DNA of 64,000 bases. Source: a virus. Taxonomy: Duplodnaviria; Heunggongvirae; Uroviricota; Caudoviricetes. Shown here one piece after another: positions 4,392-44,724 of the stretch. The position numbers were made by a program, and so were the translations under genes. The stretch lies in the IMG/VR virus record IMGVR_UViG_3300027896_000022, positions 17,954-81,953 of that record; one strand, given 5' to 3'. Each line of letters begins with the position of its first letter. Position 1 is the stretch's first letter. The notes under the pieces are model-generated. The model was given only the letters and a program-made list of their open reading frames with translations, had not been told where the DNA came from and made no database searches.

Positions 4392-4397
4392 AATTTG

Positions 4398-4772: not shown

Positions 4773-4782
4773 AGTTTTATTA

Positions 4783-14300: not shown

Positions 14301-14556
14301 GTAAGATATTTTCTGATGGGGGACGGCAAGTCGTCAGCTTTGCTCGTGGCCAGAAAAAACTTCAAAGAAAATTCCAACCACGGCGGACCGCTTGGCCGAA
14401 GGGGGGATTCATTTCCCCACTTGCCGCACCCTCATCAAAAAAACAAAAACTAATTGGCTTAATAATCTATCGTGCGTTCAATTAACTTAGCCGGAAATAG
14501 CCCGAAAGGAACCTAATACCTTTGCACACGTTCCGGAACCAATTGGAGAGTTTTAG

Positions 14557-14628
14557 ACCAGGTAACAGAAATCGGACCTGCTTCATGAGATTGGAAATCT
14601 CAGGTAATAACCATTATACGATACCTGG
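14557..14628 (-). tRNA. tRNA-Gly (anticodon TCC). The cloverleaf was folded by hand. CCA is not encoded.
   Basis: Reverse complement reads ccaggta tc gtat aatggtta ttac c tgaga tttccaa tctca tgaa gcagg tccgatt tctgt tacctgg t. It has a 7-bp perfect acceptor stem, U8, A14, GG in the D-loop, U33 and A37. The T-loop is atypical. Confidence 0.45.
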
Positions 14629-24242: not shown

Positions 24243-24767
24243 ATGATTGATGAAAATTTTTTAAAGAAGATGTTTAATCTTCCGCAAGAAACCCATCCGG
24301 AAAAACTTTGGGTTTTGAAATATGTTCCTGCTGAAGCAAAAATTATTTACGACCTTGGTTGCGGATCAAAAAAGACTGTTGAAAATGCTATTGGGGTTGA
24401 TATTAAGCCAGGGTCGGACAAAGTGGCTAGTATGGATTTTTTGCCTTTTATTGAAAATCAGACGGTTGACATTGTTGTTTTTCGGCATTCTTTGGAACAC
24501 ATGCTTGATCCGGTGAAGACCCTGAAAGAATGGTGGCGAATTTTAAAGAATGATGGGAAGATAATTATTATTTTGCCTGATTCTACCGTTTTGAATACGA
24601 TGAATATAGCGATTAGCAGAGGACAGCATTTGCATGCTTATACGCCAGATAGTTTTAAATCTTTAATTTCTTTATTTCCAGAATTCTATTTGGAAAAAAT
24701 AGAAGTAGTGATAGACGAATGGAGTTTTGAAGCAGTCTTACAAAAAAAATATGACAAAAAAAACTGA
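24243..24767 (+). CDS. Class I SAM-dependent methyltransferase
   Basis: Motif I DLGCGSKK and motif post-II VVFRHSLEHMLDP. Confidence 0.6.
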   Translation: MIDENFLKKMFNLPQETHPEKLWVLKYVPAEAKIIYDLGCGSKKTVENAIGVDIKPGSDKVASMDFLPFIENQTVDIVVFRHSLEHMLDPVKTLKEWWRILKNDGKIIIILPDSTVLNTMNIAISRGQHLHAYTPDSFKSLISLFPEFYLEKIEVVIDEWSFEAVLQKKYDKKN

Positions 24768-27693
24768 ATTATGTAATTTGGCGTTTAAATATCATTCTGA
24801 CAAATGCCCGGCCTTGCTGCATGGCTACACCCCTTTTTATCACGAATTATTGAAAGACAAGAGGAATGATGTCAAGAAAGTGCTGGAAATAGGAATTGGC
24901 TGCCCTGAGACAATGGAAATTATTAAGGGATATAAAACCGGTGCCAGTTTGTTTATGTGGCGGGATTATTTTCCTAATGCCGAAATATTCGGGGTTGATA
25001 TTTTGGATTCAGCTTTAGTGAATGGGAACAGAATCAAATCTTTTAAGTGCGATCAAAGCAACAATACGGATCTTATTTCCTTGAAAGAAAAGATTGGCAA
25101 TGATTTTGATTTAATCGTTGATGATGGTTCTCACAAAGCTGAAGATCAGGTTTTTTCATTAATTTTTTTATTTCCTTGTGTCAAGGAAGGCGGAATCTAC
25201 GTGATTGAAGATATTAAAGACCTTGATAAATTAGTCGAATTTTTAAAGATAAATAATTATAATTATGAAGTGAAATTGCCGCCTAATCCGGTTAGTATTT
25301 ATGACAGAATGATAATAATAAAAAAAGAAGAAAAAAAGAAAATCACTTTGGCAATGACTTCCTGGCCTAAGAGCAAGGAAAGGATTGAGTATATTCGCCG
25401 GACAATTGAATCATTGGAAAAAAATCTTATTGTTCCAGGATTTGAAATAAAAAAAATATTGTCTTGCGAATCAGATCAGGTGTCTGAGGAAAACATAAAG
25501 AAAGTTGAATCTTTAGGATGGCCGGTTGTTTGGCGCCATGCCGCCCCCAGTCTGGGGATGCATTTTAATGATTTGTTTGGCTCATTGACGGGGATAGTAA
25601 TGCTGGTGGAAGACGATTGCTATTTGAGCATGCCGTTGAATATCACGCCGGGGATTGAACTTATTGAAAGCGGGCAGGAAGAAGTGGTTCGTTATTGGAC
25701 TTGCAATAATAATTTGCTGGTGAAAGAAGGCGTGCATTTTACTTACAAGGGGGATACTTTTGTCCATTTGGGCGAGTGCTTGCCAAATCAGTTTGTTGAT
25801 CGCCAGCTGTATTCTGACCGCCCTTTTTTGACTGACGTGAAGTTATGGAAAAGAATAGGCCAGTATAAGTCTTTTTCCCAGCATGAATTTGATATGGATT
25901 GGCGGTTTAAGGAATTTAAAGTTCAAGTTGCCGTCAGGCTTCCTTCCGTGTTTTGGCACATTGGAATAGATACTTTGTATAAAGGAAAAATATGGCCTGA
26001 TACTTATGATGTTTCAAAAAATACTATCGAAGGGATGATGTTGGATAATGAATTGCTCTGGCTTTTTAATACTGCGTTAGGGATGAATAGTTTCCTGGAA
26101 ATTGGTTCATGGATGGGGCGAAGCACTCACGCGATATTATCCGGTTGCCGGGGGAAAGTTCATTCGGTAGATCATTTTTTGGGTTCGGCTGATCCGATTG
26201 AAACTGGCAACAGAGATGTTTTTCCGCAATTTTTTAAGAATGTTGGTGCTTTTAATAATTTGATTATTCATAAAAAGTCAAGCCTGGAAGCGGCAAAAGA
26301 GTTTGAGGATGGTTCGCTTGATTGCGTGTTTATTGACGGCGGGCATCAATATCATGAAGTTGTTGAAGATATTAGGGCGTGGAAGCCGAAGGCCAGGAAG
26401 ATCCTTTGCGGCCATGATTATCAATCCGGCCCGGTCAGAAAATCGGTGGCTGACGAGCTTGGTGAAGTAAAGGTCTATGAAAGAATTTGGTGGGTGGAAC
26501 TGGAAAAGGAACCTGATGAAGAATTGCTGCCTGGTGTTTCTATTGTTATTCCGAATTTGGGCCGTCCAGAGAAATTAAAGGCTTGTCTTGAAGCCATTAA
26601 AAAAAATGCCGGTTATCCTGTGGACAAACATGAAGTGATAGTTCAGGATGATGATTTTAAAGATAGGCAAGGGGCCCCGAAAACCTTGATGGCTGGGGTT
26701 GCCAAGGCCAAGCATGATTTGATTATGTTTTTGGGGAACGACACTATTCCGAAAAAGTTTTTCTTATTGGAAGCGGTGAAGAAAATGTTGGAAGTCTTTC
26801 CTGACCAAGATGGTTTGGTCGGGTTGAATGATGAATTTTGGAATGGCGACCTGTCGGCTCATTGGCTGGTAAGCAAGAAGATTTTGAATAAATATTTTTG
26901 CACTGATTATCACCATATTTGCTGCGACAATGAATTGGTGGAAAGATGCAAATTGATGGGAAAATATACTTGGGCGGAAAGGGCGAAAATATATCATGAT
27001 CATCCTGAGGCTACGGGGAAGTCAGATGAAGTATACGCTTTGGGTTATGAAAAGAAAAAATGGGATGAAGATTTTGCCTTATGGAAGCAAAGAAGCGAAA
27101 AGCTTGGCTTTCCGATGAGGCATTATAGCAAGAAAGAAGTTATTCTTGGCGGCTTTACCCGTTATGACGTTAATTTAAAGCCTCGGATTATGAGCTTGGA
27201 TTGGTGCAAGAATATTGAAGATTATAAAGTTTTAAATGTAGGCGTTGGTGATGGTTCGGGTGGCCTTGCCAAGCAGCTTCCTATTTTAAAGTTTAAGCAG
27301 CTTAATCATTTGGATGTTGAAGAAAGTTATTTTTCTGCGGCTAAAAAATTAAAATGGGCGACAGAGAAAGTGAACTTTATTGCCGGAGATATCAGGGACT
27401 TTGACTTTAGCGATTATGATTTGGTTTTTTTGTTTGATATCTTAGAGCATTTGCCCAAGGAAGATAGTTTGAAGATTATTGAAAAATTGAAGAGAGCGAT
27501 CATTTTTATTCCGTTGGAAAAACATTTTAGGAAGAATCTTTGGGGCGTAAAAGCCCAGGATCATTTGTCTCTTTGGACTGAAGAAGATTTTAAGTCCAGG
27601 GGATTTAAGACTGAGATACTGCCTAATTTTCATCAGAATGAATTGAATGAGAAATTTCATGCCCTTTGGGCGACAAAATATGCCAAGCAATAA
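24727..27693 (+). CDS. 988-aa multidomain enzyme. It contains an O-methyltransferase-like domain (TylF/CmcI family), a second MTase of the same family, a GT2-like glycosyltransferase segment, and a C-terminal class I MTase.
   Basis: Key segments are VLEIGIGCPETM...DDGSHK; LEIGSWMGRSTHAILSGC...FIDGGHQYHEV...CGHDY; VSIVIPNLGRPEKLKACLEAI...VIVQDDD; and LNVGVGDGSG...LVFLFDILEHL. Confidence 0.55.
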   Translation: MKQSYKKNMTKKTELCNLAFKYHSDKCPALLHGYTPFYHELLKDKRNDVKKVLEIGIGCPETMEIIKGYKTGASLFMWRDYFPNAEIFGVDILDSALVNGNRIKSFKCDQSNNTDLISLKEKIGNDFDLIVDDGSHKAEDQVFSLIFLFPCVKEGGIYVIEDIKDLDKLVEFLKINNYNYEVKLPPNPVSIYDRMIIIKKEEKKKITLAMTSWPKSKERIEYIRRTIESLEKNLIVPGFEIKKILSCESDQVSEENIKKVESLGWPVVWRHAAPSLGMHFNDLFGSLTGIVMLVEDDCYLSMPLNITPGIELIESGQEEVVRYWTCNNNLLVKEGVHFTYKGDTFVHLGECLPNQFVDRQLYSDRPFLTDVKLWKRIGQYKSFSQHEFDMDWRFKEFKVQVAVRLPSVFWHIGIDTLYKGKIWPDTYDVSKNTIEGMMLDNELLWLFNTALGMNSFLEIGSWMGRSTHAILSGCRGKVHSVDHFLGSADPIETGNRDVFPQFFKNVGAFNNLIIHKKSSLEAAKEFEDGSLDCVFIDGGHQYHEVVEDIRAWKPKARKILCGHDYQSGPVRKSVADELGEVKVYERIWWVELEKEPDEELLPGVSIVIPNLGRPEKLKACLEAIKKNAGYPVDKHEVIVQDDDFKDRQGAPKTLMAGVAKAKHDLIMFLGNDTIPKKFFLLEAVKKMLEVFPDQDGLVGLNDEFWNGDLSAHWLVSKKILNKYFCTDYHHICCDNELVERCKLMGKYTWAERAKIYHDHPEATGKSDEVYALGYEKKKWDEDFALWKQRSEKLGFPMRHYSKKEVILGGFTRYDVNLKPRIMSLDWCKNIEDYKVLNVGVGDGSGGLAKQLPILKFKQLNHLDVEESYFSAAKKLKWATEKVNFIAGDIRDFDFSDYDLVFLFDILEHLPKEDSLKIIEKLKRAIIFIPLEKHFRKNLWGVKAQDHLSLWTEEDFKSRGFKTEILPNFHQNELNEKFHALWATKYAKQ

Positions 27694-28297
27694 AGAAATA
27701 TTTACCGCTTATTATTTGGAAAATCTTTGGGGTGATCCAATGTCTGTTTCTGGCCCGAGTTCGACTGTTGAGCATACGAGAGAGACTAGAAATATTATTA
27801 GTGTTTTAATTTGTTCATTAAAGATTAAGAAAATATTGGATGCGCCTTGCGGGGATTATAATTGGTTTAGGTTTGTGCATAAAAATAGTTCTGTTTCTTA
27901 TCTTGGGGCGGATATAGTTGAGCCGCTGATTGAAAAAAATAATATTTGGTATGGTGATTATAATACCAAATTTATCAAGCTGGATATTCTTGAAGACGTT
28001 TTGCCAAAGGCAGATTTGCTGATTTGCCGCGAATGTTTGCAGCATTTGCCGATGAAAGATTGTTTTAAGTTCTTTGAGAATTTTAAGAAAAGCGAGATAA
28101 AATATCTTTTAATAACTTCTTGGGACAGTGAAAAGAATGAAGATACGGTTGTAGGGGGGTTTAGAAGATTGGATTTATTAAAAAAACCTTTTGACTTTGA
28201 AGCACCGCTGGGGTCTTTTAAAGAATGGTCATGGCCGGGTCAGTCTGAGAAACGGCTGATTCTTTGGGAAAGAAAAAAAATGTTTAAAAAAATATGA
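27647..28297 (+). CDS. Class I SAM-dependent methyltransferase
   Basis: Contains LDAPCGDYNW...LLICRECLQHLP. It overlaps the upstream gene, which suggests coupling. Confidence 0.5.
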   Translation: MRNFMPFGRQNMPSNKEIFTAYYLENLWGDPMSVSGPSSTVEHTRETRNIISVLICSLKIKKILDAPCGDYNWFRFVHKNSSVSYLGADIVEPLIEKNNIWYGDYNTKFIKLDILEDVLPKADLLICRECLQHLPMKDCFKFFENFKKSEIKYLLITSWDSEKNEDTVVGGFRRLDLLKKPFDFEAPLGSFKEWSWPGQSEKRLILWERKKMFKKI

Positions 28298-29028
28298 GCA
28301 TTCCTAAAAATATTATGACAGTGTGGCTGACTTTTGATAATGGGCCTTTGCCGCCGCTGATTAAAAGATGCATTGAAAGCCAGAAGCTTCCGGGTTATAC
28401 ACAGAAAGTGATTACCTTGGAGAATTGCTATAAAGGTTCAAAGTATGTTAATAAGGCCTTAGAGAAAGCCAAGGCTTTACATGATGCCGGGAAGCCCATT
28501 ACAGGGCCTTGGGATAATCCTTTGACCTGGATAGTCAAGGCTTCTGATTGGCTTCGCTGTTATCATATCTGCGAGGAAGGCGGGATTTACCTTGATGCGG
28601 ATATGGAAGTTATTCCAGGGAAGAACTTTGATGATTTGCTGGATTGCCGGTTCTTTACGGAAATAGAAGCTTTCGGTATGCCGGCTAATTCTGCCTTTGG
28701 ATCGGAAGCGGGCCATCCTTTTTTAAAAGAATATCTTCCTAGAATTGAAGAGAATTTTTGTGGGGACGGGATAATGGTATTTGAACCGGGGGCCAGAGCG
28801 TTTGCCGATTTGATGTGGATTTATGACAAGGCCAAAAATGGGATAAAGATTTTTGATACTTCCATGTTTTTTCCTTATACTCATGGCAAAGAAATAATTA
28901 AAGTCACGCCGCAGACCAAGGTTTATCATCATTATGTCAATTCCTGGTGTGATGACCGGTGCAAGAAAAAGCTGGGGACAGAGTATGAAACCAAGGATTT
29001 TACGGAAATATTTAAAGGTAAAATATGA
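28294..29028 (+). CDS. Glycosyltransferase with a DXD sugar-binding region (GT32/Och1-like)
   Basis: Contains GGIYLDADMEVI. It has a 4-nt overlap with the upstream gene. Confidence 0.5.
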   Translation: MSIPKNIMTVWLTFDNGPLPPLIKRCIESQKLPGYTQKVITLENCYKGSKYVNKALEKAKALHDAGKPITGPWDNPLTWIVKASDWLRCYHICEEGGIYLDADMEVIPGKNFDDLLDCRFFTEIEAFGMPANSAFGSEAGHPFLKEYLPRIEENFCGDGIMVFEPGARAFADLMWIYDKAKNGIKIFDTSMFFPYTHGKEIIKVTPQTKVYHHYVNSWCDDRCKKKLGTEYETKDFTEIFKGKI

Positions 29029-29187
29029 TTAAATATTGTTTCTTAACAACTATCATCGTTGAGGTGGGCGTAAAAAATGCCTATGCGGGATAGAATTAAT
29101 CAATCTATTCTTAAGATTACATCGGTCGAGAGTCCGTCTGTGCCGAGGTTGATAACCATAAAGGCGAGCAGTGAAACATGATGGTAG

Positions 29188-29652
29188 TTGTTAGGAAATA
29201 ATTTAATTTATATGGAATATCCTGTTTTATTAAGAAAAGATAGTTTGCGTTGTAAATTGCTTGATGAGGATATTTTATATTTGAGAAAATTAAAAAAAAT
29301 AGGTTATTCTAATCAAAAAATAGCTAATATAATGAGATTATCCACTTTTACTGTTTGGTATTGGACAACTACTGGGAAAAATCGAGAATTATACTCAAAG
29401 AAAAAATACCAAAAAAATAAACCTTTTATAGATAAGGCATATCACCGACAAAAAGTTTATGAAAGCATTAAAAGAAAAAAGAAAATTCAAGGTAAAGAAT
29501 TTAAAAAATGGTTTAATGAAAGATTTGTTTTTCCTTTTTTAAAAAAGCCTGAATACATTAAAAAGAAAAAAGAATATTGGAATAAGAATAAAAAAAGACT
29601 TAACGAACAAAGAAGAAAAAAATATTGGAAAAATAAGAAAAAAATAATTTAA
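29188..29652 (+). CDS. Very basic Lys-rich protein with an N-terminal HTH-like segment
   Basis: Contains YSNQKIANIMRLSTFTVWYW, followed by KKKY/KNKKK-rich low complexity. Confidence 0.35.
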   Translation: MLGNNLIYMEYPVLLRKDSLRCKLLDEDILYLRKLKKIGYSNQKIANIMRLSTFTVWYWTTTGKNRELYSKKKYQKNKPFIDKAYHRQKVYESIKRKKKIQGKEFKKWFNERFVFPFLKKPEYIKKKKEYWNKNKKRLNEQRRKKYWKNKKKII

Positions 29653-29818
29653 TTTAAAATAAACTATGAAAAAAATTAAAAAGATTTATGCTATTTGCAA
29701 TGAATGTTCTAAACAATTATATCCTTCAGAGTGTTTTAAAAAAGGTAGAAATTCCTATTAACTGCCTTGAGTGCGGTCATTGGTTTTTTAAAGGAGTGGA
29801 TATAACTGAATAACTTAT

Positions 29819-30007
29819 ATGAAAATGATTAAAAATATAAATAAAAAAGTTAATTTTGATATTCATCCTGATGGAGATATTTTTGTTTGGAATAAAAAAA
29901 CAAAAAAATTTGAGTATATTGGCTTTATAGTAGATGAAGAAATTTGTTGTGTTAGCCCGGCTTTAAATCCAGTTGCCGACAGATTTTATAAAGCCTTAAA
30001 AAAATAA
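29819..30007 (+). CDS. Small hypothetical protein
   Basis: 62-aa ORF. Confidence 0.3.
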   Translation: MKMIKNINKKVNFDIHPDGDIFVWNKKTKKFEYIGFIVDEEICCVSPALNPVADRFYKALKK

Positions 30008-30014
30008 TTTCTAT

Positions 30015-30236
30015 ATGCAAGACAAAATAAAGGATATTCCTATGGGAATAAGTCAATGGAAAGAATATGGAAAGAAATATCAATATTGGGATTATTTTTT
30101 AGAAGAAATTGAAGAAGAAATATTATATTGGATTAATGATTGGAAAGCAGAAGGTCAGCCATATGGATTAATAGGATTAAAAAGAAAGATAAAAAAGATT
30201 TTTAAAAAACATCTATTATGGAAAATGAAGAAATAA
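30015..30236 (+). CDS. Small hypothetical protein
   Basis: 73-aa ORF. Confidence 0.3.
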   Translation: MQDKIKDIPMGISQWKEYGKKYQYWDYFLEEIEEEILYWINDWKAEGQPYGLIGLKRKIKKIFKKHLLWKMKK

Positions 30237-30384
30237 AAAAATGGTTAAAAAGGGAAATTGAAATTTGCGAAGAAGAAAGACAAAGTGCTATTAAAAGTGC
30301 TGAATCTGCAATAAATGTTAGAGATTATTACAGTAGAAGAGGAGAATTTCTTAATAAAATTTTAAATTTAATAGAATAATTTAT

Positions 30385-31566
30385 ATGGAAAATAATATGG
30401 AAAACGATCATTATGAAGGAAATAACATTCAGGGCTGGATGCAGCCGGTTGAGTTGGAGTTTCTCTATCAGGAGGCTAAGAAGGCCAATTCTGTCTTGGA
30501 AATCGGTTCCTGGAAGGGCAGAAGCACCCATGCGATACTTTCAGGGTGCAAAGGAATGGTCACCGCTGTGGACCATTTTAAGGGTTCAGCGCAATTAGGC
30601 GATGCCACGAATCAAATGGGCAAAGTGGAAGATGTTTATAAGCAGTTCATGGAAAATGTCGGGCATTTCAGCAATCTGAGGGTTATTAAGGCTACTTCAA
30701 GGGAAGCCAGAGTCCTTTTGAAAGATGAAAAGTTCGACATGATCTTCATTGATGGCGAACATAGTTATGAAGCGGTAAAGGAAGACATTGGCTTATGGCA
30801 GGGCAGGGCTAAAAAGATCCTTTGTGGCCATGATTATTGCCCCCCTTGGCCGCCAGTAATGCAGGCTGTTGATGAATCTATCGCCAAAGACGGGGTGGCT
30901 GGAAGTATTTGGTATAAATATGTCCAAGATGATTCTACAATTGAGCAATTTATTGATTTTATTAAAGAAAAAGAGAATTTTAGCTTTATTAAACGCGGGG
31001 ATGGAGAGGAATTCTGCATGTCCGGGATGGTAGGGCAGAATTGTGATGGACATAATTATAGCCCAATATTAGGGAAAGAATTGAAAAGAGCCTATGAATA
31101 CTTTGAATCCAGAGAGGATTGCTTTGTTCCTTTATTTCAAGATCAGAATTATTTTAATGCTCTTTTGCATCGAGTCGGCAAGAATAATGCCAAAGTGAAG
31201 GAATTTTATCAGGCGATTCGGGAAGACGGGCGTAAAAAGTTCTTTGTTGGCCCAGAAAGGCTGAAAATAGTGGCTAAGATATTAAAGGCTAAGCATATAA
31301 TTATTCCGGAAAAGAATGCTTTTGAGGAATATGGCGAGATTTCTGCCAAATTGAAGAAAGAAATTGGCAAAGACAAGGATGTCATAGTTTTGTTCAGCGC
31401 TGGAATGCCGGCCAAGGTTTTAATTGCGGAATGCCTAGAGAAAGACAATGGTATTACTTGCCTGGATTTGGGTTCTGCCTTTGATTCCTTGATCAAAGAA
31501 TCAAGAACTAATCAGATGCCAAGGGCCCAGATACTGGAATTGTATGCCGATTGGATTATGGAATAA
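30385..31566 (+). CDS. TylF/CmcI-family SAM-dependent methyltransferase. It is a paralog of the central domain of the 988-aa protein and has an unknown C-terminal domain.
   Basis: LEIGSWKGRSTHAILSGCKG...IFIDGEHSYEAV...CGHDY is nearly colinear with residues of ORF 24727-27693. Confidence 0.55.
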   Translation: MENNMENDHYEGNNIQGWMQPVELEFLYQEAKKANSVLEIGSWKGRSTHAILSGCKGMVTAVDHFKGSAQLGDATNQMGKVEDVYKQFMENVGHFSNLRVIKATSREARVLLKDEKFDMIFIDGEHSYEAVKEDIGLWQGRAKKILCGHDYCPPWPPVMQAVDESIAKDGVAGSIWYKYVQDDSTIEQFIDFIKEKENFSFIKRGDGEEFCMSGMVGQNCDGHNYSPILGKELKRAYEYFESREDCFVPLFQDQNYFNALLHRVGKNNAKVKEFYQAIREDGRKKFFVGPERLKIVAKILKAKHIIIPEKNAFEEYGEISAKLKKEIGKDKDVIVLFSAGMPAKVLIAECLEKDNGITCLDLGSAFDSLIKESRTNQMPRAQILELYADWIME

Positions 31567-31606: not shown

Positions 31607-32407
31607 ATGAATGAAACAAATAAGAAAATAGCAAGCTTGATTGTTTGGGTGTTGGTGGCAATAGTTATTTTGATTCTTTTTTTCAGTTCGATTGCTATTG
31701 TCAATGCCGGTGAAAGGGGTGTCGTAATGAATTGGGGCGCTGTTTCGCAGGATGTGAAAGGCGAAGGATTCCATTGGCTTATTCCCATTAAGCAGACGAT
31801 GAAAATTGTGGATGTGAAGAATATCAAGATTGAAACTAAAACCCAGTCTTATTCCAAAGACATCCAGACGGTTGATGTTTCGCTGGCTTTAAATTACAAC
31901 GTCAAGCCGGGTTTGGCCGCCAAGATTTATCAGGAAGTGGGGACCAGCTATCAGGCGACCATTATCGATCCGGCCATCCAGGAAAGCGTCAAAGCGGCGG
32001 TAGCTCTATTTACGGCCCAGGAATTAATTGAACAGCGTCCAAAAGTCAAGGATGCCATTACTTTGGAATTAACTAACAGGCTCTCCAATTACTTTGTGGT
32101 CAGCCAGTTTTCCATTACGGATTTCTCTTTTTCTAATGAATATGAAAAGGCCGTGGAAGCCAAGCAGGTAGCCCAGCAAAAGGCCTTGGAGCAGGAGAAT
32201 ATCACTAAGCAGGTGGAAGAGCAGGCCAAGCAGACAGTGGCTTCGGCGACCGCCCAGGCTAAAGCCATCCAAATACAGGCAGAAGCAGTCACCCAGCAAG
32301 GCGGGGCTGATTATGTAAAACTTCAAGCGATTCAAAAATGGTCAGGTATTCTGCCAACTACGATGGTTCCTGGAGGTGCTTTACCATTTATAAATTTAAC
32401 CTATTAA
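31607..32407 (+). CDS. SPFH/Band-7 (prohibitin/HflC-like) membrane protein
   Basis: N-terminal TM helix, then MNWGAVSQDVKGEGFHWLIPI...VDVKNIKIET and a Gln/Ala-rich coiled coil. Confidence 0.6.
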   Translation: MNETNKKIASLIVWVLVAIVILILFFSSIAIVNAGERGVVMNWGAVSQDVKGEGFHWLIPIKQTMKIVDVKNIKIETKTQSYSKDIQTVDVSLALNYNVKPGLAAKIYQEVGTSYQATIIDPAIQESVKAAVALFTAQELIEQRPKVKDAITLELTNRLSNYFVVSQFSITDFSFSNEYEKAVEAKQVAQQKALEQENITKQVEEQAKQTVASATAQAKAIQIQAEAVTQQGGADYVKLQAIQKWSGILPTTMVPGGALPFINLTY

Positions 32408-32408
32408 A

Positions 32409-32870
32409 ATGAGTATCCCTTGGTTAAAAAAATATAATTTTAAGAAAGGTAAAAATCATCGTGGATGGAAAGGTGGAAGGATAAAAAATCATAATGGTTA
32501 TATTTGGGTTTATCTTCCATCTCATCCTTTAGCAAGGAAAAGGTCAAGAAAAGGATATGTCTTAGAACACAGATTGGTAATGTGCAAAAAACTTGGTAGA
32601 ATTATTAAAAGCAAAGAGATTGTTCATCATTTAAATGGTGTAAGAGATGACAATCGCCCAGAAAACCTTGTTTTAACATCTACTTCTAAACATATTGCTG
32701 GACATAATGCAAAAAGAGTTTGGAAAAAAGAAAGTAAATTAAAGCAAACTATAAAAGCGTCTTTATTTGAAAGAGATGCTAATGGCAGATTTCTTAAATA
32801 TCCAAATGGCGTTTTGCCCTCTACAATGGTTCCGGGAAGCTCAGTGCCGTTTCTTGATTTGAAGTATTAA
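32409..32870 (+). CDS. HNH endonuclease. Its last ~19 codons duplicate the C-terminus of the prohibitin gene.
   Basis: HNH motif VHHLNGVRDDNRPENL...HIAGH. The C-terminus VLPSTMVPGSSVPFLDLKY matches the prohibitin tail ILPTTMVPGGALPFINLTY. Confidence 0.65.
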   Translation: MSIPWLKKYNFKKGKNHRGWKGGRIKNHNGYIWVYLPSHPLARKRSRKGYVLEHRLVMCKKLGRIIKSKEIVHHLNGVRDDNRPENLVLTSTSKHIAGHNAKRVWKKESKLKQTIKASLFERDANGRFLKYPNGVLPSTMVPGSSVPFLDLKY

Positions 32871-34503: not shown

Positions 34504-34950
34504 CTATGCTTCAATTTCAGTGACCTTCTGGCTGTAATAGGATTCAAGCAGATCTTTTGCTTTGACATCCAAATTCTCGGCAGTAACCTTCAGTTCTCCT
34601 GATTCAATCTTGGTGATTGTGGCATTCTCTTCGGCTATTCTTTTCTCAATGCCTACAATAACTTCCTTCACATTCTTGATGGATTCATTGCAATAAGCGA
34701 TGCTTTCATTTTCATTCTTTAACAGATCTTCATAGCTGGGATTCTTTTTGTCCAGTATAGATATGTTATAATTAGCTTGAGCGATCCTCTTGTTAAAAGA
34801 TCCTAACAGACCGTTCTCTTCGGTGATTCTGCCGTTTAAATGCATTACCTCTTGCAGGATGTTGCTGATCCAGCGGGCTCTCAAGAGCTCTCTGGCTAAG
34901 TCCCTGATGGCCATTACCAAGGTGGAATTGGCTTTCATTGTTTCGTTCAT
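34504..34950 (-). CDS. Hypothetical coiled-coil protein
   Basis: 148-aa ORF. Confidence 0.45.
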   Translation of the reverse strand: MNETMKANSTLVMAIRDLARELLRARWISNILQEVMHLNGRITEENGLLGSFNKRIAQANYNISILDKKNPSYEDLLKNENESIAYCNESIKNVKEVIVGIEKRIAEENATITKIESGELKVTAENLDVKAKDLLESYYSQKVTEIEA

Positions 34951-34984: not shown

Positions 34985-35278
34985 TTATTTAGCCTGCTTA
35001 TATATTTTAATTAAATCTTTCAGTTTTATCTTCCTTTTGAATTGATGTTTCTCTCGGAAAGCCAAGGCTTTGCCGACGATTATCGCCATTCCTTCTTCGC
35101 TCACATTCTTGGCGATGTTCTTCTTGGCGCTTCCTATCCTGCTGACCAGATCGACGGTGAATCTGTCTTTCTTGTTTTTTGTGCCAAGAATAGAGAAATG
35201 CGTGGTGGGGATGGGGATTAGAAGCTTGTTGTCTAATCCTTCTTGGATGATGATTTCTACGTTGGTTGGTACTTTCAT
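34985..35278 (-). CDS. Hypothetical basic protein
   Basis: 97-aa ORF. Confidence 0.4.
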   Translation of the reverse strand: MKVPTNVEIIIQEGLDNKLLIPIPTTHFSILGTKNKKDRFTVDLVSRIGSAKKNIAKNVSEEGMAIIVGKALAFREKHQFKRKIKLKDLIKIYKQAK

Positions 35279-35441: not shown

Positions 35442-35864
35442 TTATTTGGCTAACTTTAGCATATGACCTTCCCAATGAAGTTTCTTGAACTCTTTTGGGA
35501 AAGTGGTGGCAAATAACTTGGTGCTCCAGGCACAGGCAGCAAGTTCGCTTATGCCGTAGAGATGATGGGCGTATTCGTGCAGGGTGGATAAGATGCTGGG
35601 ATGGTGGCAATCCAATAAGATTGTCCCAGTGTCGGGACTGTAACAGTATTGATAATTTTCTATCTTGCAGTTGGCCGGTTCACGGCTGGCAGTGTTGAGT
35701 CGCATGACTAAATTATAAAGTGCGTAAAGCTTATGCTTGACGTCGGTTTTTTTCCAGTTGTCTTTGTAATAGATCTTTTTCCATTCTGCTATTTCATTTA
35801 TTGTTTCCTGGCCGGCTTCAATCTTTTTGGCTTGAGCCAGGATTTCTTCCTTGGTTGGATACAT
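35442..35864 (-). CDS. Hypothetical protein with an HExxH motif
   Basis: Contains LHEYAHHL. Confidence 0.4.
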   Translation of the reverse strand: MYPTKEEILAQAKKIEAGQETINEIAEWKKIYYKDNWKKTDVKHKLYALYNLVMRLNTASREPANCKIENYQYCYSPDTGTILLDCHHPSILSTLHEYAHHLYGISELAACAWSTKLFATTFPKEFKKLHWEGHMLKLAK

Positions 35865-35868
35865 ATGA

Positions 35869-36960
35869 TTATACTATAGTTGGTTGATAATCTTTATCGA
35901 TGATGTCGTTGGCATGGATTGTCTTGGCTTCTTTCAAGGCATCCAGCAACGAGATCCTGATTGATTCCAGCGTCAGATCGATGTCCTTTTCGGAAATGGT
36001 TTCTATCTGATATTCGTTGTAGAGCATATCGAAGAAGCTATCCAGCGTTCCGAAGACCTCTTCGTTCTTGTCTTCTAGCGCCATTTCCAATTCGGTTGGC
36101 TCGTCTTCCGGACCTTCATTAATGACGTTCTTTTCATATCTCTTGCCATGCTGATTAGCTGGCTTCCATTTGTAATGGATATATTCGCCATATTTATCTT
36201 CCTTGTAATCATAATCCCATGCCGGGAAACAGGTTGCTTTAACTTCTTTCTTTTCCACTTCGGCAAATGGCATCTTTTCTTTCTTCAATTTCATTTCTTC
36301 ATCCAGCTTGCAGCTGTATAAAGTGTTGGCTTCTATTTCGCTTCCTTGCCCGGTTGAGGACAGGAACAGTTTGCCTCTGGTCTTGGCCATGTTCAGCGGA
36401 TTGGTGTTGCGGCCGAAGAACAGCTTGCTGATCTTCTCGGTTTCACGATTGATTTGCACGCAGATGAAAGCGGCAGAGCCTTCGATATTGACCTTGTCTG
36501 ATTGCTTCTCGATGAAGCGGGCCAGCTCGATGGTGAAGCATTCGCTGTCGTTGTATTTGCTTTTGTCGGTGTATTCGGTAGCGTAGGCGAATCCCAGTTT
36601 TTCATGGGCTTCTTTCAGCTTGTTATCGTTTTGAATGATGCCGTTGTGCACTACCAGATATTTATATTTTAAAGAACCGTTGTCTACTAAGATGGGATGA
36701 GTTTGAGCAAGTAGGTTGTCGGAACTGGTTGGCGTCCGATGATGGACAATCATTGCCCGGACTTTTTCCGAGTGTATGTCCCACATGAATTTGTAGCCTT
36801 CGGTTGCTCTCTCTACTTTGTATTCCATCTTGTCGTTTATTTTGATAATGCCAAAACCGTTTAGCCCTCTTTCTTTCTGATCTTCAAATTGATTGAGGAC
36901 GGCTTCGTTGACGGGATTGGCATTTTGGCCTGTATGAAAACAGCCTATGATTCCGCACAT
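35869..36960 (-). CDS. Class-II (Ntn) glutamine amidotransferase domain protein
   Basis: N-terminal MCGIIG with a Cys2 nucleophile, and VVHNGIIQN. The C-terminal ~180 aa are unknown. Confidence 0.55.
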   Translation of the reverse strand: MCGIIGCFHTGQNANPVNEAVLNQFEDQKERGLNGFGIIKINDKMEYKVERATEGYKFMWDIHSEKVRAMIVHHRTPTSSDNLLAQTHPILVDNGSLKYKYLVVHNGIIQNDNKLKEAHEKLGFAYATEYTDKSKYNDSECFTIELARFIEKQSDKVNIEGSAAFICVQINRETEKISKLFFGRNTNPLNMAKTRGKLFLSSTGQGSEIEANTLYSCKLDEEMKLKKEKMPFAEVEKKEVKATCFPAWDYDYKEDKYGEYIHYKWKPANQHGKRYEKNVINEGPEDEPTELEMALEDKNEEVFGTLDSFFDMLYNEYQIETISEKDIDLTLESIRISLLDALKEAKTIHANDIIDKDYQPTIV

Positions 36961-36998
36961 ATTTTATTGGTTAGCCGTCTATTGCTAATCGGCTTTAG

Positions 36999-38657
36999 TT
37001 AATTATTATTGTCTTCTTGTTCTCTTATTGCTTCGGCAAGCTCATTGTTCATCGGCGTGCTATGCTCTTCTTCATAAATGATTGTTGCGGCATTGTTGAT
37101 GGACATATTTCTGGCTATCGAATTAGTGTCGAAAGGAATCTTGTCATTGTCATCGACTTCCACTCCGACATTGTTGCAATATTTCCAGAACAATCCTCTT
37201 TCCCTGATGGTTAAGGTTAAGTTTTCATCATCAATCAGATTCTTATATTCCATTTCTAGATTCATCGGCGTGATTGTTTCTTTCTCCAGCGGATAAATAA
37301 TCTTAATTAAGTCTTTGACATCGTTGGCGATCCGCATGGCGTAAGGCAAGCCGATAATTACTAATTTCTCTTTCTCTATCTTCATGGTTAAAGGATTGAT
37401 GGTCTTTCTTTTTGAAGCGTAAGTCTTTTCAAACATCCGCTCCATCATTTCATCCATGGCTTGCTTGTCTGATCTGGTTTTGATTTCTTCTTTGCCGCAG
37501 AGCAATTCCTTGTCTTGGTTGAAGATGATCGGCGTGTCCAATCCTTTCTTCAAGCCGAAGAGATAATAATTGTTCTTCAATTTCCATTCGAAAGCGGCCA
37601 CATGCTTCTTGAAAGATTCGACCATGTCGGCGACATTGATATCATTGTTGTATTTGATGTCTATCGCTTCGGTCATGATGTCCAGATTCTTTTTGTTGGC
37701 GATCTCTTTGAACTTCTTGTCGTTTATCAGAATCTTGAAAGACGGATCTTTTATCTTGGTTGATTTTTCCAGGTTCCAGCCGACTACGATATTGTATTCG
37801 GCCTTCTGCTTGTCCTCCATCACTTTCTTGGGGTTGAGGATGTAATCCACTTCGGCTTTATAATCGTTATAAAGCTCGAAAGTCTTGACCGCTTTTTTGA
37901 TATCGTTGAACAGCTTTTCGGTGACGCCGATATATTCGGTCACCGCCAGCTTATGCAGGGCAAAAGCCTGCTCTCGGTTGCGATAAACGATGTACATATA
38001 CTTCTTGAAATTTTCCGGCTGATACAAGATTTCGTTATAGACTACGGCGAAATACGCCAAAGTCGCTCTGGTTATTTTTTCTGTCACTAGCCATTCGGCC
38101 GATGGCGTTCGGAACTCATAAGTGAAATCATATCCGCTGCCGTTACTGAAAGCGTTGTCGCCATGAAAATCGGTGAGAGTTCCATAGCCGCCTCCCTGCG
38201 ATCTGATCCGCAGATTCATTTTATTCTCGCTAATTAAAACCGGCAGATAGAAGCTGGCGATTTTCTTGTGCAGGCTTTCCACCAGCTTTTGATTGTCGTG
38301 CATCTCTTGGGAAATCTGAAAATGGATATGGCCTCCGACCGGCGCGTGGATTGAGAGCACTGACATGTCGCACATTGACAGATGCTGGTGCGATTGGGTG
38401 ATAATGCTTTTGATGTTTCCTGCCAGCTCTTCTATTGAATTGCTTGGCTTGGGCCTTAATTCGCCGGTGGCGCTACAGCCGTCCCAGCCCATTTCGCCTC
38501 CTTCGCAGGCGAATCCCGAGCTCTTTATCAGGAATCCTTTCTTTCTTTTTAAATTGCTTTCCAGCAATTCGCAGGCGTCCACTCTCTTGCCTTGATAGAC
38601 GAAAGAGAATTCCGGGTCTGCTCCTAGTTTGAATTTTAGTTTGTTTGTTTCAATCAT
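36999..38657 (-). CDS. Large hypothetical enzyme-like protein. It may be a carboxylate-amine (amidoligase-type) ligase partnered with the adjacent GATase.
   Basis: 552-aa ORF immediately upstream of the GATase on the same strand. The N-terminal LGADPEFSF vaguely resembles the GvElEf start of GCS2/amidoligase families. The assignment is weak. Confidence 0.25.
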   Translation of the reverse strand: MIETNKLKFKLGADPEFSFVYQGKRVDACELLESNLKRKKGFLIKSSGFACEGGEMGWDGCSATGELRPKPSNSIEELAGNIKSIITQSHQHLSMCDMSVLSIHAPVGGHIHFQISQEMHDNQKLVESLHKKIASFYLPVLISENKMNLRIRSQGGGYGTLTDFHGDNAFSNGSGYDFTYEFRTPSAEWLVTEKITRATLAYFAVVYNEILYQPENFKKYMYIVYRNREQAFALHKLAVTEYIGVTEKLFNDIKKAVKTFELYNDYKAEVDYILNPKKVMEDKQKAEYNIVVGWNLEKSTKIKDPSFKILINDKKFKEIANKKNLDIMTEAIDIKYNNDINVADMVESFKKHVAAFEWKLKNNYYLFGLKKGLDTPIIFNQDKELLCGKEEIKTRSDKQAMDEMMERMFEKTYASKRKTINPLTMKIEKEKLVIIGLPYAMRIANDVKDLIKIIYPLEKETITPMNLEMEYKNLIDDENLTLTIRERGLFWKYCNNVGVEVDDNDKIPFDTNSIARNMSINNAATIIYEEEHSTPMNNELAEAIREQEDNNN

Positions 38658-38664
38658 AGGTTTG

Positions 38665-39084
38665 TTAAATTAATATTTCGTTATTGCAGAATTCGCAGAT
38701 GATCGACCTGTCTTCGCCGCGGAAATTCATCTTGTGGCATTCCGGGCATTCGACAGAAGGAAAGTAGTTAGCGACTCTTTCCTCCGGCGATATGTCATTG
38801 TTTCTGCGTACGGGATTTATTATCACATGCTCTTGCAGACGTTCTTCAGAGTTGCAATCATCCAATGAATCCACAATGTCTTCGCTAAAATTAATTTCTT
38901 CGTCGCACTCTGGGCAATGATAAGTATATTCATCCGTGCTGTAATCATTGGAATCATGGTCGGTTGTTTCAGAATTGCCTCCGTCTAAATCGCAGGTTCC
39001 ATATTCGGTTCCTGTTTCAGTGTAATAGCAGCGATAATCCAGATTGGTTATTTCTGCTCGGCAGTATCGGCAATATTTTGGCAT
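38665..39084 (-). CDS. Acidic zinc-ribbon protein
   Basis: Several CxxC pairs: CRYC, CPEC, CPEC and CEFC. Confidence 0.45.
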   Translation of the reverse strand: MPKYCRYCRAEITNLDYRCYYTETGTEYGTCDLDGGNSETTDHDSNDYSTDEYTYHCPECDEEINFSEDIVDSLDDCNSEERLQEHVIINPVRRNNDISPEERVANYFPSVECPECHKMNFRGEDRSIICEFCNNEILI

Positions 39085-40188: not shown

Positions 40189-40301
40189 GCTTCCTCCTTG
40201 TTTGATTGTTGGTTATAATGCTTTCATTTATAAGACAGAATTCCAAAAAAATAGTAGTCAAAGAAAAAGGGGAAGGCATTGCTGCCTTCCCCTTAGTTCT
40301 T

Positions 40302-41149: not shown

Positions 41150-41452
41150 ATGAATCATGTTTTTAATGGATTGAAGAAAAAAGAATTTTTTAGTGAAATT
41201 AGCCAGTTGGCCAATTTCTGTGATGAAAAGTTAGTAAGAAATGTTTATTACGCGATGATTAAAGTGATGTCCAGGGAACTGAGAAAAGGCAAAAGAGTCA
41301 AAATGCCTGATTGGGGGGATTTTTATATTCATCTTGCGGCACCCAGATTTGGGAATGATCTTAAAACTGGGATGCCAAGAAATTTTAGAATGCAAAAATT
41401 AGTTAAATTTAGGGCTGATTATAAGGTGAGGGCATATTTTAAAGCGCTTTGA
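41150..41452 (+). CDS. HU/IHF-family histone-like DNA-binding protein
   Basis: The beta-arm region GKRVKMPDWGDFYIHLAAPRFGNDLKTGMPRNFRMQKLVKFRADYKVR resembles the HU RxxRNPxTGxxIxIxAxxVxxFKxGK pattern. Confidence 0.45.
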   Translation: MNHVFNGLKKKEFFSEISQLANFCDEKLVRNVYYAMIKVMSRELRKGKRVKMPDWGDFYIHLAAPRFGNDLKTGMPRNFRMQKLVKFRADYKVRAYFKAL

Positions 41453-41535: not shown

Positions 41536-44500
41536 ATGGCAACAGCAAAAATACCTTTGACTTTGGATCAAATGGAGCAGCAAAATGCAGATTTGGACAG
41601 GCAACAGGCAATTTTGGATGCAAAAGTACAAAATACAGGCAGTTTTTTCAGTGAAGCAACTCCAACTTCACCAGAATTGAATTTAGATATTCAGCAAAGG
41701 GCGTTAAATGCCAAACAAGACACGCTACAAAGCAATATATTAGCTAGAAAAGTATATGGCGACACTACTGCCATGGGGGAAGATACTGCCAGCAAGCAGG
41801 GATTGGTAGGAGGTATAGTAAATACGCTCAGTGCCCCATTATATGGCGTGGTTGGTGCGGCTAAATATGCCTTAGGCAAAAGCGACCAGCCGACATTTGG
41901 CGAGAGTGTGATGGAAAACGTTAAAAGCACCAAGGACACTTGGGGAAATTTATTGCGGCAGATGGGAACGGCACCCTTGATAGCGGCACCATTGGGATTT
42001 GGATTGGATGTGATTACCGATCCGGTGAATTTGGCGACAGGCGGATGGGCGGGGTTGGAAAGAACCGCCTTGGGAAAAATTGTCACTGGTGCGGCCAAGG
42101 CCGGAAAAGAAGGCTTGGTAGCCGGGGCCAAAACGGCAACTTTGGATTTGGCTTCCCGGATAGCCAGTGTGGTTCCAGGAATGAATGTAGATACGATTGC
42201 CAGGGATGCGGCAGAAAAGTTGGCTAAAGAAGGGGTTGCCGCCAATACTCCGGAATATATAGAGGCGGTAAAGAAGGCTTTCATTCCCGCGGACAAAGGG
42301 GTGGGAAATATTATCGGCAATATTCGCTATGGCATAAAGAATCTTTATGAAAAAACATTGACTGCCAAAAATAATTATGACGATGTGATTGGTTTTGATA
42401 TGGGCAAGATGCTGGATGCGCGGGCGGAAAGAGAAAGCATTGCTGATAAGACTAGTGCTTTGATTTCTTCAATTCCTAAGATTGGGCCCCTGCCTTCTGG
42501 GGTGGAAATGGCTGATTTCTTTTCTTACAATTCAAACAAATGGACGCAGAATGCAATCTTAATGAATAAGCTTGATGAAGCAATGGCTAAGGCGGGAAGG
42601 GTTGCGGTGGCGACGATTGATCCGCAAACTGGAGAGAAAATTTATCCGGGTGTGGAAGAATTGATGAGAGTGGTCAAAAATGTTCAAGGATTGGATCCTA
42701 ATCCGATAGCCATAAATAATGATATAAAGTTTAAAGATTTGAGCAAGATGATTGAAGACTGGGGCAATGGTTTGAAAAATGGCGCGGATGTCATGCATAT
42801 TCCTGGCGAGGATATTCGGGTAGCGTCGACGCCGGCAATGAACGATGCTTTTACGACCGAACTTAGAAACACTAATGTTTATAATGATCTTAATAACGCT
42901 CTTCGTGACATGATGGGGAAAGCCGACTTGAGTGCTGTGGATAAGTTTAGGAATTGGGTTAGCAAAGGGGTTTGGGGGAAGAATAGCGCCAAGAAAGTAG
43001 AATATGGCAAAAAGCTATTGAATTCTTATGATTTTTTGATGGGGTGGTTTAAGAACATGAAGATTTCTTCTTTGAGCCCTTCTTCCTTGGTTTATGCCAT
43101 TTTGGGTAATGGCACCATGCAGCATATGGCGGGAGTGAATATGCTTCGTCCGGAAGTATTTAATCGGATGAAAGATGCGGCAGTTCTGATGTCGGGCGGC
43201 AAGATTCCTGGGCTGGGAGGGATAAAAGAATTTGACCGCTTGGTTAATGAATTGATTGTTCATCCGAAAGATCGTTATTTAAGTGATTTTTTTACGCAAC
43301 ATAGTGATTTGGCAAGGCAAAATTTTGCTTTAAGCGGCAGGACTTTTGGTGTTCATAGTTTGGCAGATGATATTATTAATTCAACGATAGAGCAAGAGAG
43401 AAAGGTTTTGGGCAGAGATCTGACAACAATGGAGCGAAATGATATTTATAATGAGATCTACGCTAATAGAAGCAAGGAGGTTGATGCTCTTTTAAAAAGT
43501 GATACCGGGTTAGCAAGATTGAGCATGATGAATGGCACAATGCCTGCCGGGAAAGAATCAACTGGAATATTGGCTAATGAACTGGCTCCGCATAAAGCAT
43601 TTTTAAATTGGAAGAATAGTATTGCGGAAAAAGCGGCAGCACCGGGAGCGAGCAATGGCGTTAAATTTTTAAATTGGACTTTGAATAGAAGCAATGATTT
43701 TCAAATGACAGATCAGATTTGGAAATTGCAGAATTTTCTATTGCTGACTCAGGATGGCGTGACTGAAAGAGAATTGATGAAGTTGACTAATAATTTTATG
43801 TCGACAACCGCCCGGATTAATTCTTCTGATATTATTGGAACGGTTACTAAAGGAGGTCAAAAATATTATCGGATAGCTCCGGAGAAGGCGATGGAAATAG
43901 CCAATGAAACTTTCATGAACTATGCGGCCATGCCGGGATTTGTTAAAATGGTAAGAAGCATGCCGATTCTTGGTTCTCCCTTTTTCTCTTTTACTTATGC
44001 GATGCTCCAAAAGACAGCAAAGACTATGGTAAATAATCCGGCTGCTTTAAATCAGATTAATTTTTTACTGCAAGAAATGCAGCCGCCGCAAACGCCGCTG
44101 GAAAGAGAAGCGTTAAAAACTAAAGCTTATAGTTATTTAAGCCAGCCCGGAATGGTTAACTTGGGAGAAAATTTTCCGTTTTTTACTGGTAATCCTCTAT
44201 ATTTGAATTTGGCTCAAATGGTTCCTTATTATAGTTTGAATATTCTTAACCAGTCGACTAGAAATTTTAACGATACGGCCAGGGGAAAAGTAGCAACTGT
44301 CTTGGATAAATCTCCTTTAATGAAAGATCCAGTTGGTCAGTTATTGATGGATTATGTAGTGCTTCCTTCTTTAATGTATGACGAAACTCCGACTAATATG
44401 TTTGGCGGACAGTTGTATCCGACAGGCACTAGTGCTTCAGGAAAGCTTGGATATGCAACAAGATCTTTGGCTGAAGCCTTAACTCCTTCGACGGTTGCGC

Positions 44501-44724
44501 CAGTGGGGCTTGTTACTCCTGATTATTTAAAGAATTTATTGCCGAGTTATCCGGCAAGAAAATTAGGATATGCGGCTGAAGGAAAGACAGCGGTTGGAGT
44601 TCAGACAAAAGAGCCTCCGGCTCAGAAAGGATTAAGAGCATTATTAAGTACAATGGGAGTTAATCTTTATCCGGTGAATTTGACGATGGTTGCCACTGAA
44701 GTTAAAAATAAACAATTGCCGTAG
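41536..44724 (+). CDS. Large hypothetical protein of 1062 aa. It is a possible virion or ejected protein.
   Basis: Long ORF leading the late or structural block. It has an N-terminal coiled coil and no motif I can name. Confidence 0.6.
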   Translation: MATAKIPLTLDQMEQQNADLDRQQAILDAKVQNTGSFFSEATPTSPELNLDIQQRALNAKQDTLQSNILARKVYGDTTAMGEDTASKQGLVGGIVNTLSAPLYGVVGAAKYALGKSDQPTFGESVMENVKSTKDTWGNLLRQMGTAPLIAAPLGFGLDVITDPVNLATGGWAGLERTALGKIVTGAAKAGKEGLVAGAKTATLDLASRIASVVPGMNVDTIARDAAEKLAKEGVAANTPEYIEAVKKAFIPADKGVGNIIGNIRYGIKNLYEKTLTAKNNYDDVIGFDMGKMLDARAERESIADKTSALISSIPKIGPLPSGVEMADFFSYNSNKWTQNAILMNKLDEAMAKAGRVAVATIDPQTGEKIYPGVEELMRVVKNVQGLDPNPIAINNDIKFKDLSKMIEDWGNGLKNGADVMHIPGEDIRVASTPAMNDAFTTELRNTNVYNDLNNALRDMMGKADLSAVDKFRNWVSKGVWGKNSAKKVEYGKKLLNSYDFLMGWFKNMKISSLSPSSLVYAILGNGTMQHMAGVNMLRPEVFNRMKDAAVLMSGGKIPGLGGIKEFDRLVNELIVHPKDRYLSDFFTQHSDLARQNFALSGRTFGVHSLADDIINSTIEQERKVLGRDLTTMERNDIYNEIYANRSKEVDALLKSDTGLARLSMMNGTMPAGKESTGILANELAPHKAFLNWKNSIAEKAAAPGASNGVKFLNWTLNRSNDFQMTDQIWKLQNFLLLTQDGVTERELMKLTNNFMSTTARINSSDIIGTVTKGGQKYYRIAPEKAMEIANETFMNYAAMPGFVKMVRSMPILGSPFFSFTYAMLQKTAKTMVNNPAALNQINFLLQEMQPPQTPLEREALKTKAYSYLSQPGMVNLGENFPFFTGNPLYLNLAQMVPYYSLNILNQSTRNFNDTARGKVATVLDKSPLMKDPVGQLLMDYVVLPSLMYDETPTNMFGGQLYPTGTSASGKLGYATRSLAEALTPSTVAPVGLVTPDYLKNLLPSYPARKLGYAAEGKTAVGVQTKEPPAQKGLRALLSTMGVNLYPVNLTMVATEVKNKQLP

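Follow-up and report, generated by a model that had tools for sequence, protein, structure and literature searches.

A block of small genes on the minus strand of a tailed-phage contig carries an amidoligase module: a phage-encoded set of at least four co-transcribed genes in which a carboxylate-amine ligase stands next to a stand-alone class-II glutamine amidotransferase domain (GAT). The contig is 88,184 nt long (IMG/VR record IMGVR_UViG_3300027896_000022); the stretch analyzed is a 64-kb part of it, referred to here as the window, and coordinates are those of the window unless a related locus is named. A first-pass annotation had drawn attention to three adjacent open reading frames (ORFs) spanning 35869–39084, and all three are found on the minus strand: 38665–39084 (139 aa), 36999–38657 (552 aa) and 35869–36960 (363 aa). 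The span is right for these three genes but it is not complete: a fourth conserved gene at 35442–35864, absent from that annotation, belongs to the module. In order, the four genes encode an acidic double zinc-ribbon protein, the ligase, the GAT and a zincin-fold protein. Between the zinc-ribbon and ligase genes lie 7 nt, between the ligase and GAT genes 38 nt, and between the GAT and zincin genes 4 nt; the genes therefore constitute one translationally packed unit, in agreement with the transcriptional coupling proposed earlier. Because the ligase has 136 homologues and the GAT 300 in a metagenome protein collection, and because 15 related loci show the same arrangement of genes, we regard the three ORFs first noted as real genes rather than chance reading frames.

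The block has replication and modification genes on one side and structural genes on the other, and its genes have A-rich leaders with no Shine-Dalgarno motif. The phage genome encodes a large terminase (TerL), a portal, a collagen-like tail fiber, a primase-helicase, a UvsX-like recombinase and SbcCD-like proteins. The phage is uncultured and remote from isolates, since its TerL is at most ∼30% identical to the TerL of any GenBank phage.

The proteins of the module

The 552-aa protein is a carboxylate-amine ligase of family PF14395, with the fold shared by glutamine synthetase (GS) and gamma-glutamylcysteine synthetase (GCS). Residues 39–274 match the Pfam model, named "Phage phiEco32-like COOH.NH2 ligase-type 2", with 48.9 bits against a gathering cut-off of 25 (E = 6.9e-13), and among the matches listed a precomputed PF14395 assignment is present on 119 of 120 ligase homologues. 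The motifs expected of the superfamily are all in place: G12-A-D14-P15-E16, D59, E66-x-R68, G108-G109-H110-x-H112 (GGHxH), R152 and E181-x-R183 (ExR). In an alignment of 42 sequences (32–70% identity) the invariant positions are D14, E16, D59, E66, R68, G108, G109, H110, H112, R152, E181 and R183, to which roles in metal and ATP binding may be assigned from what is established for the superfamily. With the acidic strand motifs, GGHxH and ExR invariant across the family, the ligase is probably active.

Profile comparison (hhalign) aligns residues 5–274 of the ligase family with a short, 297-aa PF14395 ligase from a virome at a probability of 99.25%, the active-site motifs being common to both; against an Amidoligase_2 (PF12224) protein there is no profile similarity (probability 0.4%). 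The AlphaFold2 model (pLDDT 87, pTM 0.83) contains a catalytic fold of the GS/GCS type, which is also that of the PafA/Dop-like ligases; YbdK/GCS2 structures score equal to or above PafA, so the fold does not single out PafA. Fold comparison succeeded where a search of the family profile against the PDB gave no sequence-level match, even at E ≤ 1. The annotation had put this ORF forward as a possible carboxylate-amine ligase, a proposal that was to fall if no ligase-like fold could be found; the fold is there and, together with the PF14395 match and the invariant motifs, it carries the proposal.

Homology to other ligases ends at about residue 275. The N-terminal ligase domain (aa 1–275; 37833–38657) is followed by a family-specific, well-modeled alpha/beta domain (aa 276–470; 37248–37832) with invariant positions of its own (N337, G368, G436 and R442), and then by an acidic tail modeled at low confidence (aa 471–552 plus the stop codon; 36999–37247; pI 4.25, 21% Asp+Glu, pLDDT 35–79). 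A search of 1.84 billion cluster representatives with the C-terminal domain returned 191 proteins, in essentially all of which the domain lies at residues ∼270–480 of a 500–750-aa protein; the shorter matches are probably fragments. As the same architecture was obtained throughout, the search yields no hint of function, and the domain appears to occur solely in fusion with this long type of ligase. From BFVD no full-length match was obtained.

The 363-aa protein is a stand-alone class-II (N-terminal nucleophile, Ntn) glutamine amidotransferase domain (aa 1–225; 36286–36960) with a complete set of catalytic and glutamine-binding residues. It starts with MCGIIG, placing the nucleophilic Cys directly after the initiator Met, and contains HNGIIQN. 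Across 34 homologues M1, C2, G3, R31, G32, R75, P77, T78, N106, G107 and D138 are invariant; R75 and N106-G107 fall within a HMMER alignment to PurF, where they correspond to Arg73 and Asn101-Gly102, and D138 was matched to PurF Asp127 by motif. The class-II signature first noticed at 35869–36960 is thus confirmed, with Cys1, the Arg, the Asn-Gly pair and the Asp all invariant.

In a search of the family profile against the PDB the matches are PurF (1.8e-7) and GlmS (2.5e-5), and in NCBIfam the protein matches the N-terminal domain of GlmS (E = 1.6e-14, positions 1–266 of a 601-position model). The window sequence is divergent and scores below the Pfam gathering cut-offs for GATase_6 (21.5 vs 27) and GATase_7 (19.5 vs 25), but many of its homologues do carry PF13522, and the fold assignment holds. 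Its nearest resemblance is to true amidotransferases such as GlmS and PurF (GATase_6, GATase_7), whereas the YafJ/EgtC-type family GATase_4 is not matched. We consider the protein probably active, as an Ntn glutamine or gamma-glutamyl amidohydrolase.

Its last 138 residues (aa 226–363; 35869–36285) form a variable acidic extension without a synthase domain (pI 4.6, 24% Asp+Glu), poorly conserved except for a terminal helical segment. Nothing beyond the glutaminase domain matches a Pfam or NCBIfam family; the extension is of conserved length and could dock on a partner. Identification as AsnB, GlmS, PurF or GltB was considered and rejected: no fused synthase or acceptor domain was found, and scores are far below the NCBIfam equivalog cut-offs (GlmS 53 vs 381, PurF 22 vs 350, AsnB 19 vs 267). 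The same domain content disposes of the reservation, made at the outset, that the C-terminal half might betray an ordinary biosynthetic enzyme such as asparagine synthetase.

The fourth gene (35442–35864) encodes a 140-aa zincin-fold protein, a putative mini metallopeptidase. Its invariant residues are H96-E97-x-x-H100, E107 and G133-H134: the HExxH motif, present in the syntenic homologues from related loci, is followed downstream by the invariant E107 and H134, either of which may be the third metal ligand. The fold has the mixed sheet, active-site helix and following helix of a zincin. It is that of the minimal zincins (the minigluzincins projannalysin, proabylysin and selecase; SprT/Wss1; the IrrE/CapP-type proteases), in which HExxH is likewise followed by a Glu on the next helix. 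No significant match was obtained in Pfam, PHROG, NCBIfam or PADLOC, so the protein belongs to no curated peptidase family. The N-terminus, M-Y-P-T-K-x-x-I-L, is invariant or nearly so (M-Y-P invariant) in homologues that are otherwise 35–55% identical; a role in docking or autoinhibition, or as a substrate element, is conceivable.

The zinc-ribbon protein (38665–39084; 139 aa) contains four CxxC pairs and is strongly acidic (24% Asp+Glu, pI 4.2). Eight Cys residues (C5, C8, C57, C60, C113, C116, C130 and C133) are invariant in 11 syntenic homologues, as are E27 and G29; the linkers are acidic and the C-termini are not conserved. Pfam zinc-ribbon matches remain below threshold, and the original description as an acidic zinc-ribbon protein stands on the invariant Cys and the pI. 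PHROGs hold no family for this protein, the ligase or the zincin, and PADLOC no defense-system relative of the module proteins. In several relatives the zinc-ribbon gene is adjoined by a gene X (149–384 aa, with a conserved N-terminal region of ∼150 aa and no Pfam match on record), which in most of them lies between the zinc-ribbon and ligase genes (L002 5956–6981, L003 6552–7001, L005 5794–6948, L006 6224–6988 and L014 6077–6937); the window lacks gene X. L017 is a distant cassette of the short type, and its GAT-II ORF (4260–5576) has a C-terminal CxxC...CxxC segment, an echo of the separate zinc-ribbon protein of the window module.

Conservation of the gene set and relation to known cassettes

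Related loci were gathered by exact-protein look-ups and pattern scans of IMG/VR. A GAT homologue is found directly downstream of the long-type ligase in all 15 of 15, and ligase, GAT and zincin occur together in every related locus that extends far enough (about 13 lineages). Two loci end before the zincin position: L012, and L006, where the zincin is at the other end of the contig. The zinc-ribbon protein is encoded near the ligase in most related loci, and the order is zinc ribbon, ligase, GAT, zincin. The closest ligase and GAT homologues lie on contigs of matching nt size. Even in very distant cassettes of the short type, with 21–26% ligase identity, PF14395 and GAT-II remain adjacent.

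Two small ORFs usually follow the zincin gene. The first, at 34985–35278 (minus strand), encodes a basic protein of 97 aa (pI 10.2), for which no family match was found in Pfam, PHROG or PADLOC; an iterative hidden Markov model (HMM) search recruited a counterpart at this position from 12 related loci, near-duplicates among them. The second, at 34504–34950 (minus strand), encodes a coiled-coil-like protein of 148 aa, recruited in the same way at the same position in 9 related loci, again including near-duplicates; its matches are weak and sub-threshold, mostly to coiled-coil families.

L006 and L021 are the same record, IMGVR_UViG_3300035208_005614 (101,237 nt), in which the ligase gene and the beginning of the GAT gene lie at the very end and a zincin homologue at the very start; from this arrangement the genome can be taken to be complete and circularly permuted, and its module to be intact. 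The only matches in the genome collection are contigs of metagenome-assembled genomes (MAGs), three of five labeled as Candidate Phyla Radiation (CPR) or DPANN. The long-type relatives L022, L023 and L024 are on contigs binned in CPR (Candidatus Shapirobacteria, Paceibacterota) and DPANN (Aenigmatarchaeota) MAGs; L022 and the IMG/VR phage contig L014 are both 38,636 nt long. The CPR- and DPANN-labeled contigs are probably binned phage DNA; alternatively, they may hint at host range.

Ligase/GAT-II cassettes are widespread, being found in LUZ24-like, phiEco32-like and Lahexavirus phages and in marine and archaeal viruses. Citing papers credit the definition of the phage COOH-NH2 ligase/GAT-II cassettes to Iyer et al. 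2009 (Mol Biosyst 5:1636). According to later papers the cassettes were predicted in 2009, and the same work is credited with suggesting cell-wall modification against superinfection, or secondary metabolites, as their role (PMC10580990, PMC11706807); function is treated as open in both of these papers. In the searchable literature the genes are labeled "amidoligase" or "GATase" auxiliary metabolic genes (AMGs), with speculative roles in the cell wall, secondary metabolites, nitrogen metabolism (PMC10945688) or DNA hypermodification.

The pairing of GATase and ligase in other phages, mentioned in the first annotation, is documented. Pseudomonas phage UFV-P2 (LUZ24-like) has PF14395, Amidoligase_2, a GATase and an ATP-grasp protein (PMC3890496); Aeromonas phage LAh_9 (Lahexavirus) has GGACT, PF14395, Amidoligase_2, an 846-aa GAT-II protein and a RimK-like ligase; L016 has a 297-aa ligase, a GAT-II and a RimK-like ATP-grasp protein; and L017 a 265-aa ligase with a GAT-II ORF. 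Like the window module, these classic cassettes place a ligase of the PF14395 family beside a class-II GATase without a canonical synthase domain, in non-structural regions of the phage genome. However, their ligases measure ∼265–300 aa, whereas the window ligase has 552 aa and a family-specific C-terminal domain. The classic cassettes also add Amidoligase_2 (PF12224), a RimK/GSH-synthetase-like ATP-grasp protein and often GGACT, in place of which the window module has a fixed zincin and an acidic double zinc ribbon. Neither Amidoligase_2, RimK-like ATP-grasp nor GGACT was detected by Pfam among the 37 window ORFs scanned, and tblastn of the LAh_9 and L016 cassette proteins against the window gave no match. 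Nor was any match returned from 50,697 GenBank phage records by tblastn of the ligase and GAT or by megablast of the 15-kb region. The window module is a variant of the known cassette class, one without a detectable relative in any GenBank phage.

Outside the phage cassettes, YbdK/GCS2 and gamma-glutamylcysteine ligases are 9–14% identical to the window ligase, which is set apart from both by its extra C-terminal domain and its phage-specific partners.

Proposed chemistry and alternative explanations

That the ligase and the GAT are the enzymes named above, and that they are functionally coupled, we consider highly probable. The predicted chemistry, amide-bond formation coupled to the hydrolysis of glutamine or of a gamma-glutamyl amide, is well supported. 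The specific mechanism that we propose is as follows. The ligase would use ATP to activate a carboxylate as an acyl-phosphate, the mechanism of its superfamily; the GAT would hydrolyze free glutamine, and the ammonia released would attack the acyl-phosphate. Ligase and GAT would together constitute a split glutamine-dependent amidotransferase, converting a carboxylate into a carboxamide. The zincin may expose or trim the site of modification, while substrate recognition could be provided by the C-terminal domain of the ligase, by the zinc-ribbon protein or by both.

For this statement in full, amidoligase module and split-amidotransferase mechanism together, we put the probability at about 0.4. 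The role of the GAT as ammonia donor is held tentatively, at rather less than even odds; it is favored because the protein resembles the GlmS/PurF type, with no GATase_4 match, and because it retains the C-terminal extension that might serve as a partner dock. As to the substrate, there is about an even chance that it is a peptide or protein, of host or phage; this is likelier than a free metabolite since a peptidase-like and a zinc-ribbon protein are fixed partners.

Several points weigh against the split amidotransferase. No pair of a GS/GCS-fold ligase and a GATase-like protein is known in which the partner is an ammonia donor: in EgtA/EgtC, PuuA/PuuD and IpuC/IpuF it is a gamma-glutamyl-amide hydrolase. 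The conserved Cys, Arg, Asn-Gly and Asp set, moreover, cannot separate the two activities. Finally, our survey of the searchable literature found no experimental or biochemical test of phage amidoligase/GAT-II cassettes.

The strongest rival, though an unlikely one, is gamma-glutamyl conjugation and removal. Here the ligase, like GCS, PuuA and EgtA, would couple glutamate through its gamma-carboxylate to an amine, for instance that of a polyamine, of an amino acid or of a lysine in a protein, and the GAT-II would be a gamma-glutamyl-amide hydrolase like EgtC, so that the pair makes and edits its product. In ergothioneine biosynthesis (EgtA/EgtC) and putrescine utilization (PuuA/PuuD) a GS/GCS-fold ligase is indeed encoded with a GATase-like amidohydrolase, which removes the gamma-glutamyl group, and the window module pairs the same two kinds of protein. 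The GGACT of the classic phage cassettes points in the same direction. But EgtC is of the YafJ-like GATase_4 type and PuuD is class I, whereas the window GAT is nearest to the glutaminase domains of GlmS and PurF and has no GATase_4 match. In the window neither tblastn nor Pfam (37 ORFs scanned) detected a relative of GGACT or ATP-grasp proteins, and the Egt and Puu systems are cellular metabolic pathways that, unlike the window module, have no zincin or zinc-ribbon partner.

These same two partners tilt the substrate toward peptide or protein and so leave room for tagging of the pupylation kind, which is nevertheless improbable. In such a viral counterpart a PafA/Dop-like ligase, with a recognition domain of its own, would link lysines of host or phage proteins, through amide or isopeptide bonds, to a small protein or peptide made by the phage, for host takeover or counter-defense. 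The zinc ribbon would be the tag or an adaptor, the mini-zincin a protease that matures or erases the tag, and the GAT-II an ammonia source or a deamidase. Against this, YbdK/GCS2 folds score as well as PafA or better, and the GAT-II has no counterpart in pupylation. None of the small ORFs of the block ends in a Pup-like GG[QE] (the termini are EILI, KLAK, KQAK, EIEA, AEQK and NNR), the C-termini of the zinc-ribbon proteins vary, and no proteasome or Mpa gene was seen among the scanned window ORFs. To judge from PurF and GlmS structures, Arg75 and Asp138 of the GAT would fit a free glutamine or a gamma-glutamyl group and not a peptidyl glutamine, because these residues suit an alpha-carboxylate and an alpha-amino group that are both free.

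In another reading the module would amidate or extend a precursor of the cell envelope, for instance at a carboxylate of the peptidoglycan stem peptide, in order to block superinfection; we rate this as a poor prospect. PMC10580990 reports a suggestion of this kind for phiEco32, which it credits to Iyer et al. 2009, and glutamine-dependent amidation of a carboxylate is the very chemistry of the split amidotransferase. However, inspection of the sequence starts of the four proteins (no formal prediction was made) revealed neither an obvious signal peptide nor a membrane segment at the N-terminus, the module has no Mur-ligase or cell-wall genes as neighbors, and the conserved zincin and zinc-ribbon partners would be left unexplained.

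Hypermodification of DNA or nucleotides, with ligase and GAT decorating a modified base, is more doubtful again. In viromes, according to Lee et al. 2021 (PMC8989533), amidoligase and glutaminotransferase domains occur in association with genes for 5-HMUDK and aGPT-Pplase. Yet no 5-HMUDK, aGPT-Pplase, dUMP hydroxymethylase or TET/JBP gene was found among the 37 scanned ORFs (Pfam) or the PHROG matches, which cover the 64-kb window of an 88-kb genome; these families are likewise missing from the precomputed Pfam matches for called genes in L001–L004, and the module lies in a block of small genes away from nucleotide metabolism.

An ordinary AMG, either a biosynthetic amidotransferase (asparagine synthetase, GlmS or PurF) or a nitrogen-assimilation helper, is barely credible and is effectively refuted by domain content: the N-terminal domain of the GAT does resemble GlmS, PurF and AsnB, and one paper reads such genes in this way (PMC10945688), but the 363-aa protein has no synthase, isomerase or phosphoribosyltransferase domain and scores far below the equivalog cut-offs, and in the related loci that extend far enough it is invariably accompanied by a PF14395 ligase and a zincin.

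The window module is the most stripped-down and most protein-oriented version of the cassette found in this analysis. Its compact make-up of four proteins (a ligase with a domain of its own, a glutaminase, a mini-protease and a zinc ribbon) suits reconstitution, and once its chemistry is worked out, that of all such cassettes would probably follow. If the target is a protein, the module would represent a new type of phage-driven post-translational modification; if the enzyme is a metabolite amidotransferase, it would be a modest addition to the auxiliary enzymes of phages.

Other features of the window

A perfect 12-bp GC-rich hairpin (AAGGGGAAGGCA...TGCCTTCCCCTT) lies at 40267–40294, inside the minus-strand block and upstream of the module; on either strand it scores as a terminator. 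At 24243–31566 on the plus strand, just upstream of the module, methyltransferase and glycosyltransferase domains are densely clustered. Two of the proteins are methyltransferases of 174 and 216 aa, a 988-aa protein combines three methyltransferase domains with a GT2 fragment, and the others are a DXD glycosyltransferase and a fusion of Methyltransf_24 with GT-D. The cluster may be a phage module for glycans or sugar methylation.

An SPFH/Band_7 gene (31607–32407, plus strand) ends in ...ILPTTMVPGGALPFINLTY, and an HNH_3 endonuclease gene (32409–32870, plus strand), which starts 1 nt later, ends in ...VLPSTMVPGSSVPFLDLKY. The duplication of the C-terminal tail in the two products suggests that a homing endonuclease has inserted at the 3′ terminus of Band_7; in the relative L001 no HNH gene was called beside the Band_7 gene.

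Two very large plus-strand ORFs, at 13–4110 (1365 aa) and 41536–44724 (1062 aa), have no Pfam or PHROG match. A peptide deformylase (5268–5750) and a tRNA-Gly(TCC) (14556–14628) are encoded on the minus strand, and an HU-like DNA-binding protein (41150–41452) on the plus strand. The 1062-aa ORF is conserved beside an HU-like gene in L001.

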